From positions 1 to 46,031 of IMG/VR virus record IMGVR_UViG_3300025875_000048: a DNA stretch of 46,031 bases; one strand, given 5' to 3'. A program made the position numbers and the translations under genes. The first letter of the stretch is position 1. Every line of letters starts with the position of its first letter. The notes beneath the pieces are model-generated. The model made no database searches and was not told where the DNA came from. It worked only from the letters and a program-made list of their open reading frames with translations. This DNA comes from a virus. Taxonomy: Duplodnaviria; Caudoviricetes. Positions 3,239 through 19,449 of the stretch are shown piece after piece.

Positions 3239-3709
3239 ATGTCTACTACTACTGCCTCCGCCATCTTCACCGCCGCCCATGCTGCTGCCAAAGTTGCTGA
3301 TGCCGTGGTGGTCTACAAGGTGCGTTTCTCTACTGCCCTCAAATCGGCCTGGGCTGCCGCCAAACAAACCATCAACGCTATTATGGAAACCCCCAGCACC
3401 GCCGTAGTAACTTTCAACAATGGCCGCACCGCCACCTTCGCGCTGACTGCCGAGGCACAGGCGCAGCACCGCGCCACCATTGCCGCTCATTTTGCCGGTG
3501 ACACTCGCCGTGATGACTCGTTTTACACCGCCGAAATGAATGCACTTGGCAATGCCGAGTATGTAGAGCAGCTGGGCGCTCCTTATTACTTCTGTGAATT
3601 AGTAAGCGTAGCACAAATTGAGCGCCGCTTAAGTGGTGGCATCAACCGCTTGATCAAGCAAAGCGGCGCCGAATACGTCGCTGCTGAACGTCACGAAGAC
3701 AGCTTGTAA
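3239..3709 (+). CDS. Hypothetical protein (anti-defence candidate by context)
   Basis: 156 aa ORF with its own promoter and a downstream hairpin; Ala-rich helical N-terminus. Confidence 0.75.
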   Translation: MSTTTASAIFTAAHAAAKVADAVVVYKVRFSTALKSAWAAAKQTINAIMETPSTAVVTFNNGRTATFALTAEAQAQHRATIAAHFAGDTRRDDSFYTAEMNALGNAEYVEQLGAPYYFCELVSVAQIERRLSGGINRLIKQSGAEYVAAERHEDSL

Positions 3710-3710
3710 T

Positions 3711-3742
3711 GCAAAAGCCGCCTGCTCTACAGCAGGCGGCTT
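3711..3742. terminator. Likely bidirectional terminator hairpin; U-tail on minus strand
   Basis: AAGCCGCCTGCT-ctac-AGCAGGCGGCTT, 12-bp perfect stem; minus strand ends CGGCTTTTGC. Confidence 0.8.
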
Positions 3743-3842
3743 CTCACACGGCCCGATTGAAGCTAGAGCAATCTACTGCTCACTGTCTATTTCAATTCCC
3801 TGACGGGTCCGATTAATACTTCACCTGGGGTCCGATTGAGGC
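3741..3842 (-). CRISPR. Orphan mini-CRISPR / crRNA-like unit with type I-B-like repeat
   Basis: Full repeat GTATTAATCGGACCCGTCAGGGAATTGAAAT (3819-3789) ending in an ATTGAAA(N) handle; truncated copies at 3842-3820 and 3763-3741; 25-nt spacer 3788-3764; no cas genes in the window. Confidence 0.65.
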
Positions 3843-3851
3843 GCTAACATA

Positions 3852-7881: not shown

Positions 7882-8297
7882 AGCATCCTCCCCACTACCA
7901 GCCCCATAGCCGTACTGAATAAGACCCACCCGAGTCCTTTCGCGGTGGCGTGGGCTATCTTCTTGCGGAGCAGTTTATTTTCGGTGTTGGCATCCACGTA
8001 CATATTCCAGCTGCGGAGCCCGGATTCCTGCGCGGTCTTTTTCTGTTCCTCACAGGTGGCAATGGTGGCTTTGAGGCCGAATACCCTCCGGTCTTGCTCC
8101 AGCACGGTTTCATAGAGTTCATCTACCTTCTGTGCTAGTTGCTGCTGACTACGCAGGCCGTCGGCTACCTTGCTTACCTGTTTTTCACTTAGGGAGGGGG
8201 TCGTTGCAGTGCTTGCAGTTGATTGGGCCAGGGTAGGTTTCCAGCAGCCGAACATTAGCAGCGTGCTGAGCAGGACGAGATAGAGCTTGGTGGGCAT
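7878..8297 (-). CDS. Putative spanin-like protein (signal/lipobox-like LMFGC, coiled coil, C-terminal TM)
   Basis: Position in the lysis cassette; overlaps the upstream membrane coiled-coil gene. Confidence 0.5.
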   Translation of the reverse strand: MPTKLYLVLLSTLLMFGCWKPTLAQSTASTATTPSLSEKQVSKVADGLRSQQQLAQKVDELYETVLEQDRRVFGLKATIATCEEQKKTAQESGLRSWNMYVDANTENKLLRKKIAHATAKGLGWVLFSTAMGLVVGRML

Positions 8298-9042: not shown

Positions 9043-12000
9043 TTAGGCGAAGGCAGGACCAACTAGCTTGTCAGCCGAATACCCGGCTGGCAGATACCCG
9101 TTGTTCTGGTTTAGGCTCGCTTCCGGCGGGGTGGCGACATAGGGTACCGGGGCGGAGGTGAGAAAGAGCAGCTGGGGTTTCTCCGTCAGCTGCCAGGCGT
9201 AAGAGCCGGCCGGTACCTCCGTAATCGTCGGGGTGGTGGTGGTTTGGCTGAGCCGGTATTTCAAACTAGCCGGTACCGTGCTGGTGTAGGTAGCGGTGGC
9301 TCCCTCTTCTTTGGGTACCCAGCCGACTTTGGCCCGTACACCCGTAACCGGATGCTTGTAGATGGTCACGCGTGGTTCCAGGCTTTCGGTGCTTTCATAC
9401 ACCATTTCGCCGAGCAGTTGATTGAGTTGGTAGTACATATTACCAGCCATCCGTCTGGTTTTGTCGGCATTGATAATACCGCAGTAGCTGTAGCGTGTGT
9501 GCAGGGAAGGTGGTGTACTGGCATCCTCCATCATGTACATTTCCAGTCCATCCAGTCCTACCCGGTCCATTTCCAGCGCGGTGCGACCCATCCAGTCGGC
9601 TTGGTTATTTTCCAGTGTTGCCAGTGGAATTACGTTGTTCACCGCCGCGGCCACGTCCATCGGGCGGGCGGCCCGCTGCGTACTCTGGCCTAAGTCGTAG
9701 CCAAACTCGCCAATGAAAAGGAGAAGCTCGGGGTCCATCTTTTCGGCCACGAAATCCGCGAATTCCTGATATTTGGCGGCATACTGCGCAGGTTCCGGTG
9801 CCCGGCCCCGCGTAATCGTACCACTTTGCGTAATACCAATGTCCGTGGCGTAGGCGTGATATTTAATCGCGTGAAACGGCAGGTCTACTTTGCCATTGGC
9901 CTTGTAGCCCCGGTGTTCGCGGCACCAGTCCAGAATGCCTTGTAGAAATTCTGTAGTAGCGGTAGCCGAACCATCGAGGGCCAGCCGCATGGTTGGGTCA
10001 ATATTGACAATGCCCGCATCCGGCCCTAGGGTACCTTTGTGTCCGTCGTAATAGGCAGAGGCACGGGCGGCCCGCATCCGGCCGTTCATATACCCTTGTC
10101 GGCCTCTCCAATCGGAATCGGACTCGTTGTTGATCTCAATCCAGTTGAGCAAGTCCAGGCCGGTGCGCTTCTTGTTGGTCGGGAAACCGCCGCCCGGTGC
10201 CTGATACACCTTGATTCGGGATTCATCTACCACTACCCGGCCATAGCGCATCGTCACCTGGCCAACCAACAACGCCCCGTGCTTGTGAGCTTCCGGCGTT
10301 TCCGCGTAGGCCAGCGTAGCCGCCCACGAACCTTGCCATTTGACGGTCATCTGTTCCGTGGTCCGCATATCCGCCGGCCACGTTTCTTGAATCCAGCCAG
10401 GGGCGTTTTTCAGCACTAGCAGCACCTCCTGCCCTTGGCTCTTAAGTCCAGCTAGCCACGTATCCGTGTTGAAGCTACCGGCCTCATGCCAACCGGGACC
10501 AAGCATATACTGGCCTTCAATCGGCTCCACGCGAAAACGGTCATGATACCCGCGGGTGCGGCCAAACATGCGTTGCAATCCCATCAGGACGGGCGAGAGC
10601 AATGACGGATCATCCGACTTCAGTGTATTCCACGGGAAAGAGTTAGCCCCTAGCATTTGCTTGAAGGGCTTGCTACGGCGTACCGGGGCGGTCGGAGTAA
10701 GGGGCGTAATCCACGTACCGAACAACTCCACTTCCGAGGGTTCGTCAAAGAAGGCATCACAGACCGCGACAATCCAGGTAACCGGCGTGTCCTGCGGAAG
10801 CGTGAACTCCACCCAGCCTTGGTTGGGCTGAATTTCGCCGAGTAGGGTTTTCTCGAAACTGCCCCGCGCGATGTAGTACCACGTAATCTTGCTGTTCCAG
10901 TCCCGCGAAAACACCCGGATTTTATTCAGGTTAAAGCGGTACTTGCGCGTATCGATCCGATAGGTGGTCTTATCGTCGTTGTTTTTCAGGCGCATTTCCC
11001 CGCCGTAGGTCTTGCGCAGGTCGTTGTCAGTCCAATTGGAGTCCGAGTCGTCGTCGCGCACGTTGTTGACCGCGTACACGTCTTTGCCGGTATAGAGTAG
11101 TTCTCCCGATTGGCGGGTGCCGCTATCCCACAGGGCGAAGAACGGATCAGCATCCACTCCTGGTGTAGGCAGGGTGGGTGGCGGTGTTGGGGCATTGAGC
11201 TTGAGCAGGTTAATCAGCCCTGTGCTCGCATTGTAGCTGAACTCGTCGGCTCCCTCTACTACGACGTTGGTTAAGGTTACCCCACTTACTACTACCGATA
11301 GGTCATGGTAGCGGCTGTAGGAGGGGAGGGCTGAACGGTCAATCGTCCAGGTAACGGTATTACCGGAAACAACCGGGGCGCTGATCGGGCAGAGGCGTTT
11401 TACTTCCTCGTATTCCGCTACTTCTTGGAGGTTGTAGATACCCAACCCCTGCCCGTCACTGTTGGTGGGATGGTTGAGCGCGTAGCGCAGGAAGGCTTCG
11501 AAGTTGTCGGCTTGCCCGGCCCCTGGCCCGTGGTCGCCAATCGAGAATACCACCCGCTCCCCGGCGTTGAACTGCTGTTGCGCGTACGTTACCTGATTGT
11601 CGTACCAGCTGAGCTGATCCGCACTATTCCAGTTCATCAAATGCGGCAGGAACCGGCGGTTGCTGATCAATCGCTGAGGGTTGGTAGCCCGGGGCAACCG
11701 TACCCGGTCGCCGTACTGCACTTCACTCTGATACGGCGCGGCGTTGGGGGAGCCATCGCCCCCGAATCCTTCGCTCGTATTCCACAGCATTTCAGCCAGC
11801 TCGAATGTGGCACCGGTGTAGTAGTTGAAGCCACCGGGCGTGGTCATGGTGCGCGGCCGGAATCCTAACTTGCTTTCAAACGTGACTTGTGCCCGCTGCA
11901 AATCGGCAGTGGCTTCCGCAATACTGTTGAACGGGCCGTGGTTTTCACTATGGCTGGAGGCGCCAAACCCCCGGTGGCGCTTGAACATGCGGTCGAACTG

Positions 12001-19383: not shown

Positions 19384-19449
19384 CAAAACTACCCTCCCCC
19401 TGTCCTGCGACGGGGCCGCTGGCGGGGGTTTGGTTGAGTGAACAGGCCG
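19384..19449 (-). promoter_or_regulatory. Late promoter (21-bp box plus -7 element)
   Basis: CGGCCTGTTCACTCAACCAAA (19449-19429), 37 nt, TAGTTTTG (19391-19384). Confidence 0.8.

Follow-up and report, generated by a model that had tools for sequence, protein, structure and literature searches.

A CRISPR-like repeat unit in a temperate phage, likely of Hymenobacter, as a candidate RNA anti-CRISPR

Introduction

What is a small piece of DNA that looks like part of a CRISPR array, with a promoter and a terminator of its own, doing in a phage genome? The question is raised by a gap between two open reading frames (ORFs) in the 46,031-nt stretch analysed here (hereafter the window), which is the whole of a 46-kb virus record. 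The window carries integrase, repressor and amidase genes as well as virion genes (terminase, portal, capsid and tape measure), and the crRNA-like unit lies antisense in this gap, with the integrase on one side and the lysis genes on the other. Like a Cracr (see the last section), the unit is carried by a mobile element and is not part of a CRISPR-cas locus. A preliminary description had proposed a unit of this kind in a genome free of cas genes, and on the latter point we agree: the Cas models of PADLOC matched none of 60 window ORFs, a selection of the window's ORFs, and the PADLOC matches obtained were to non-Cas models, mainly HTH. Rfam gave no match in the window.

Anatomy of the unit

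The unit and its two flanking genes are laid out as follows.

3239..3709, plus strand: 156-aa ORF, the convergent flank, with a conserved N-terminal part of ~45 aa and a variable C-terminus
3713..3740, minus strand: intrinsic terminator with a 10-bp GC stem, a 4-nt loop and a U run
3741..3763, minus strand: pseudo-repeat 3, the 5′ part of a host-type repeat, handle-less and with a broken outer stem pair
3764..3788, minus strand: spacer-like guide of 25 nt, with positions 1–7 unpaired and a 5-bp hairpin at 8–23
3789..3819, minus strand: pseudo-repeat 2, a full 31-nt repeat with handle
3820..3842, minus strand: pseudo-repeat 1, the 5′ part of a host-type repeat, handle-less, ending at the Cas6 cut site
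3844..3851, minus strand: predicted −7-type promoter box TATGTTAG of the Bacteroidota type, which directly adjoins the divergent ORF at its start codon
3852..4118, plus strand: 88-aa basic ORF, the divergent flank, with a ribbon-helix-helix-like (RHH-like) C-terminus

All the parts first claimed for the unit are thus present at their coordinates on the minus strand. Pseudo-repeat 1 is fused directly to pseudo-repeat 2 without a gap. The latter has a 3-bp stem (3807–3798) closed by a 4-nt loop, followed by one A and the 8-nt handle (3796–3789). An 8-nt handle is the general rule in type I CRISPR systems, and from this rule a Cas6b cut in pseudo-repeat 2 is predicted between 3797 and 3796. Pseudo-repeats 1 and 3 both end about where Cas6 would cut, and pseudo-repeat 3 could serve as the 3′ handle of the guide. 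With at least two repeat-like units and a spacer in a cas-less viral genome, the unit has what defines a viral mini-array.

We call the box at 3844–3851 a promoter on the basis of what we take to be the −7 consensus of Bacteroidota. It is the sole match to TAnnTT(T/A)G on either strand between 3050 and 4250, with 18 matches in the whole window. At the other end, the terminator had been described as a 12-bp stem with a U-tail. Its hairpin (3740–3717) and U run (3716–3713, 4 nt only) are borne out, but the stem is 10 bp long and reaches 12 bp only if two A residues are borrowed from pseudo-repeat 3.

The core motif TYAATCGGRCC has exactly three copies in the window, all inside 90 nt, and seven matches when up to one mismatch is allowed; three exact copies anywhere were obtained in none of 200 Markov simulations of the window. 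The 147-nt unit folds with a z-score of −3.9, the terminator hairpin being part of that fold. The spacer, said to fold on itself, does form the 5-bp hairpin, but not beyond chance (z −1.08, with 30 of 200 shuffles folding equally well). Self-folding had also been taken as the sign of a decoy, for which it is weak evidence, as the hairpin is not significant and the spacer of a sister unit (see below) folds too, past its seed, yet has a candidate target.

The 156-aa ORF has a homologue named from Hymenobacter psychrophilus and another that flanks the sister unit; it matches phrog_12732 at E 3e-4, and Phage_Gp111 at 0.89 as an Atlas lead. We regard it as a candidate anti-defence gene. The 88-aa ORF is 43% identical to an ORF flanking the sister unit and gave no match in Pfam, NCBIfam or PHROG; its RHH assignment is an Atlas lead below 0.9, and it could be an Aca-like regulator.

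The phage and its likely host

Hymenobacter is the likely host genus of the phage. Our comparison sample was a 165-genome genus set, which we take as Hymenobacter because the homologue named from H. psychrophilus is encoded in one of its members (G455). None of 2185 host spacers matched the window (best 27/36), so the assignment is drawn from protein and repeat similarity, and the true host strain probably falls outside the sample.

Two further features of the phage genome may be recorded here. A box of 21–23 nt occurs in four copies on the minus strand (near 19428, 22513, 32160 and 41110). Each copy is followed after ~40 nt by a −7-like box that contains GGGTAG, and by a start codon; the four are probably late promoters that include an activator site. 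The arms of an inverted repeat at 777–913, which separates the repressor gene from the divergent 80-aa ORF, have the sequence GTTAACAAAC; this repeat likely represents the immunity operators.

Relationship to host CRISPR arrays

Comparison with the CRISPR repeats of Hymenobacter, as proposed at the outset, places the repeat in a real type I-B family. Its pattern occurs in 49 of the 165 genomes, many of them holding it as long arrays; Cas6 is present in 35/165, and all three cas operons tested are type I-B. A 30-nt relative is found in arrays of Chitinophaga and other genomes (37 stretches), the repeats of the Hymenobacter set being the closer match. The host repeats are 29 nt long and come in 25 variants, all with a stem of two pairs (CY, 4-nt loop, GG) followed by one A and the 8-nt handle. 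Our search pattern had fixed three of the stem positions and left one free; that position is C or T in 25/25 variants and therefore always pairs. The middle of the Hymenobacter repeat is 4 nt, and patterns with a middle of 5–7 nt matched 0/165 genus genomes and 2/401 Cytophagales genomes.

At their 5′ ends the pseudo-repeats agree with host repeats at 14/14 positions (pseudo-repeat 1), 12/14 and 17/19 (pseudo-repeat 3). A pseudo-repeat that resembles the host repeat and keeps the processing handle, as expected of a Cracr, is therefore found in the window unit. The two extra nucleotides of pseudo-repeat 2 (31 vs 29 nt) make one extra C–G pair in the Cas6 stem; paired insertions lengthen the stem by one pair in the window unit and by two in the sister unit. 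The spacer had been called shorter than typical, and at 25 nt it is, since 2116 of 2185 host spacers measure 35–37 nt.

The host leaders, together with the sister unit, also back the promoter, the strand and the polarity of the terminator. Of 33 flanks examined on the 5′ side of host arrays, 14 carry a TATAMTTR box at the leader end, and the 4-nt spacing between the box and the TCAATCGG motif is the same in the window, in those 14 flanks and in the sister unit. The first 20 nt of the window unit reach at best 14/20 identity to the end of a host leader, and those of the sister unit 19/20. A leader motif further upstream, CGACG(A/C), is present in 29/33 host flanks and upstream of neither phage unit, which in this respect differ from an adaptation-competent array. 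The simplest history of the unit would be capture of a host leader-repeat junction.

PAM and CreR-like units of the host

The PAM of the host systems is CCN. Two host spacers match a prophage of their own genome at 36/36 positions, both CCC-flanked, and weaker protospacers at 33/36 and 32/37 have CCC and TCC; some weaker ones have other flanks.

Of 36 host cas loci, 8 have a unit of the same build as that of the phage, antisense and placed in the gap that follows cas6; one further genome (G528) has such a unit as well.

L304, L320, L321, L323, L324, L329, L331, L335 and L464: host CreR-like units, in the gap from cas6 to the following cas gene

Four of them have 13–15-nt targets flanked by CCC or CCG, so that the sites targeted by host regulatory units agree with the PAM; the other five have no match or one of 7–8 nt only. 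In three host loci that were read out, the target is just upstream of an internal cas5 promoter box. The seeds vary from strain to strain. These I-B antisense units look like CreR regulators. They start with leader and handle only, whereas the window unit starts with two repeats.

Two further observations belong here. A Bacteroidia genome (L126, ~8050–8200) has a single repeat, a short spacer, a truncated repeat and a terminator directly upstream of cas6, again CreR-like. In G482, spacers of L454 include two perfect CCC-PAM self-matches to the resident prophage L467, and the I-B operon looks intact. This prophage has related flanking genes and, in the stretches scanned, no repeat unit; being self-targeted without such a unit, it may carry a protein inhibitor.

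A sister unit in a Hymenobacter prophage

In the Hymenobacter genome G360, a prophage contains a sister unit whose neighbors are homologous to those of the window unit; strand, promoter position and handle are as in the window, and the U run is on the same side as in the window's terminator. Its spacer is 54 nt long and unrelated to that of the window. This is the one sister unit known; related flanking genes occur in three other prophage loci, all of which lack a unit. A corrected pattern matched 13/165 genomes, with solitary units only in G360 and G405. Promoter-anchored patterns recovered only the window's own contig (L393) from metagenomes and nothing from the genus set (0/165); as these patterns would miss the G360 unit, they are uninformative on how frequent the family is. 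In G405, a genome without a Cas6 match, the solitary 31-nt repeat is followed by a spacer, a truncated repeat and a hairpin, in an AT-rich island (L339/L402, ~9400–9500).

CRISPR guides leave every sixth base unpaired. With this rule applied, the G360 spacer matches one conserved site ~55–70 nt into cas6 in 11 of 36 host loci, at 12–13 of 13 pairable positions. The matches are flanked by CCN in ten loci and by TCG in one; one cas6 hit is on the antisense strand of the same near-palindromic site, and G360's own host cas6 is among the 11, with one seed mismatch. No shuffled spacer out of 150 reached as many loci (12 observed, maximum 9), but the top score of 13/15 was reached by 18/150 shuffles, and the 11 loci are homologous and therefore count as one site. 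For these two reasons we grade targeting of the start of cas6 by the G360 spacer as suggestive. We also observed that in L367 (G491) the 5′ part of cas6 runs into a CRISPR repeat ~30 nt past the site of the G360 guide, the cas operon appearing to be deleted.

Search for targets of the window spacer

A search of the 25-nt spacer of the window against host cas promoters and related phages had been proposed. Among the 36 host cas loci no target is credible: the best match is 11/15, equalled by 143 of 150 shuffles. Two individual candidates were set aside, a seed match in a conserved stretch of cas8 as too short (7 nt), and an 11-nt match 5.6 kb from a cas6 for its wrong PAM. In the 165 genomes the hits are at chance level: PAM and seed together were found in one genome vs 2 control hits, at the end of a gene that we take to be divIVA-like, in a genome without Cas6. 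One 14-nt match has a TCC flank. No host regulatory RNA sharing the spacer's seed was found in 274 family genomes, and across the 36 cas loci and these 274 genomes, which probably do not include the true host, no host CreR/CreA spacer or promoter target was found to share at least 9 PAM-proximal nt with it. As for related phages, the viral contigs, in which the host group is thinly sampled, gave six chance-like hits at 17–20 of 25 positions. The initial impression that the spacer has no match within the window itself proved correct.

Relatives in viral DNA

The exact 25-nt core of the repeat was absent from the viral contigs; handle plus seed gave 60 hits there, none in a repeat context. When inspected, none of the hits to the tandem-repeat pattern (24) or to the host-type pattern (12) turned out to be comparable with the unit. 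Against phages and plasmids, a BLAST search with the unit returned short chance matches only. The build as such does recur in other viral contigs, with 116 stretches in one scan, many near-duplicates. Among these, 82 are single repeats and 53 have a −7-like box; box and truncated distal repeat occur together in 7, and a truncated repeat in front in 3.

In half of the single-repeat stretches (41/82, including L003–L006, L012 and L013), many of them near-identical, one promoter precedes three elements: a repeat of type I-B, a second, repeat-like element (GGATT..AAAC) and a repeat that is presumably of the Cas12a type. These would be a mixed-type decoy cassette. Cracr arrays, as far as the main text describing them goes, stay inside one CRISPR type (10.1101/2024.10.29.618823).

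Discussion

From the anatomy, the repeat family, the PAM and the sister unit we infer expression, processing and inhibition, and we think it probable that the unit is a phage RNA anti-CRISPR that titrates Cas6 or Cascade and may also guide silencing. The points that speak for this are the repeat family, the lengthened stem, the sister unit, the PAM, the cas6 match, the host units and the precedents of Cracr and Racr. Against it we count that the window spacer has no target in our searches, that the sister's matches amount to a single homologous site, that there is one sister unit and three loci without one, and that no host spacer matches the window.

We suggest that the unit is a crRNA-like gene which the phage took from a type I-B array of Hymenobacter, at its leader end, and uses for counter-defence. 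The −7 box would drive an RNA of ~130 nt ending at the terminator, which host Cas6b would cut once, after the reinforced stem of pseudo-repeat 2. The upstream piece of 46 nt would then consist of two Cas6-recognition halves without a 5′ handle, and could hold Cas6 and Cas7 in dead-end complexes in the manner of a Racr. The downstream piece (8-nt handle, 25-nt guide and pseudo-repeat 3, with or without the terminator; 56–84 nt) would load a short Cascade that competes with immune crRNAs. Where the true host offers a CCN-flanked seed match, this short Cascade would repress rather than cut, as with a Cracr. We divide our confidence about evenly between titration alone and titration combined with a real DNA target, in a host outside our sample. 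The hosts carry CreR-like feedback, which would put a pure decoy at a disadvantage and argues for a target that is real but unsampled.

A more elaborate proposal, which we offer tentatively and think less likely than not to hold in full, is an anti-CRISPR with two products, built from a captured leader promoter and first repeat with a strengthened stem: a handle-less Cas6 sponge and a short guide aimed inside a cas gene, at a conserved, PAM-flanked stretch of codons. As the unpaired positions 6 and 12 would fall on wobble bases and the PAM on a proline codon, one guide would silence many host strains. Such a guide would be the RNA-guided counterpart of the CasPR roadblocks and not a copy of the promoter-targeting CreR of the host.

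Could the unit instead be a piece of a host array, with leader end and repeats, that the prophage picked up and that is now decaying without a current function? Its derivation from a leader-repeat junction, its degenerate repeats, the lack of a target in the searches made and the related cassettes without a unit all fit such a fragment. Yet the promoter, the handle, the truncation of the distal repeat and the polarity of the terminator are all kept, at one and the same site, in two different prophages whose spacers are unrelated, the insertions in the repeats are base-paired, and host arrays have 35–37-nt spacers and full distal repeats. We therefore consider decay unlikely.

We give still less credence to two readings in which the guide works with host Cascade on something other than cas. 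One is a mini-array that borrows Cascade-Cas3 to cut competing phages, giving superinfection exclusion; in its favor, viral contigs of the host group are poorly sampled and gave no sister units. Its spacer, at 25 nt, would be far from the 35–37 nt of the host, no protospacer in the viral contigs exceeds 20/25, and what the sister unit may target belongs to the cas genes of the host; this makes such a role quite improbable. The same low standing applies to a regulatory guide that uses Cascade as a repressor of a non-cas gene, either one of a phage or a gene of the host for defence or for a toxin. Host units work with seed matches of 13–15 nt, which are hard to find genome-wide, and there is the 14-nt TCC-flanked match, but that match is at chance level (2 hits vs 2 control hits) and the window holds no self-target.

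It had also been envisaged that the motif might prove to be an IS end or a protein operator, and both fare badly. That the three TYAATCGGRCC copies are operators of the adjacent RHH-like protein, with an incidental likeness to CRISPR, would explain why in both prophages the motif immediately precedes the start codon of the RHH-like gene, but is very hard to reconcile with the GGAATTGAAAT handle and stem kept in both units and in host arrays, with a plus strand that has no −7 box there, and with two other loci whose RHH-like relatives lack the motif.

If the RNA anti-CRISPR reading is correct, the RNA anti-CRISPRs (Cracr/Racr) extend to type I-B systems of Bacteroidota, with an origin traceable to a captured leader-repeat junction. 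A matched test set would then be at hand in the phage units, the host regulators and their targets, and the PAM. The sister unit points to silencing by viral guides from within a conserved part of a cas coding sequence, which would explain how one phage copes with promoter-targeting regulators that vary between strains.

Comparison with known systems

RNA-based counter-defence by CRISPR mimicry is a known trick, and what is new here is the host group and the unusual build. The literature we searched, to which the Cracr supplements and the large mini-array tables do not belong, contains no report of such units in the Hymenobacter group. We suggest that the window unit works like a Cracr and a Racr, and it has the strict definition of neither.

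Cracrs are described as viral crlRNAs that repress cas or creT promoters, and in the main text they are reported both to compete for Cas proteins and to repress promoters; a spacer mutant of CracrVA1 still competed but lost its anti-CRISPR effect as autorepression was relieved (10.1101/2024.10.29.618823). The window unit is likewise phage-borne and cas-less, with a pseudo-repeat, a short spacer and a terminator, and mimics regulatory crlRNAs of the host. Type I-B targets are among the 219 Cracr candidates, whose hosts in the main text are Pseudomonadota, Bacillota and Actinomycetota, 'bacteroid' occurring there 0 times (10.1101/2024.10.29.618823). Cracrs, as that text presents them, target promoters, whereas the candidate target of the G360 sister is inside the cas6 coding sequence and the searches gave no target for the window spacer. 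The window unit also has an extra handle-less repeat in front.

The likeness to Racr lies in a promoter-driven repeat mimic in an intergenic region of a prophage, and in a predicted upstream Cas6 product without a 5′ handle, like that of RacrIF1, whose product upstream of the cut is described as the inhibitor (PMC10651486). A promoter directly upstream, here a predicted one, and a lack of cas genes are shared as well. The suggestion of a solitary-repeat Racr, however, does not hold in the published sense: solitary repeat units are defined in the main text as being without other partial repeats nearby, and 'I-B' occurs in it 0 times (PMC10651486), whereas the window unit has three repeat-like parts, a full handle and a guide.

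With CreR/CreA mini-arrays the unit shares the order of repeat, short spacer and diverged repeat; in the account available to us, I-B mini-arrays are near cas6 and also in phages of Clostridium and Fusobacterium (10.1101/2023.03.03.530964). Hymenobacter host loci carry units of this CreR/CreA type. The viral I-B mini-arrays described in that account share the seed of a host mini-array (10.1101/2023.03.03.530964), and for the window spacer no such shared seed was found.

Finally, CasPRs are presented as CapR/AP2 proteins of Bacillota phages that bind cas8b (10.64898/2026.02.23.707548). As described there, they silence a type I-B cas gene from a conserved site early in its coding sequence. The G360 guide would do likewise, with the difference that the recogniser would here be RNA-guided host Cascade, acting at cas6.
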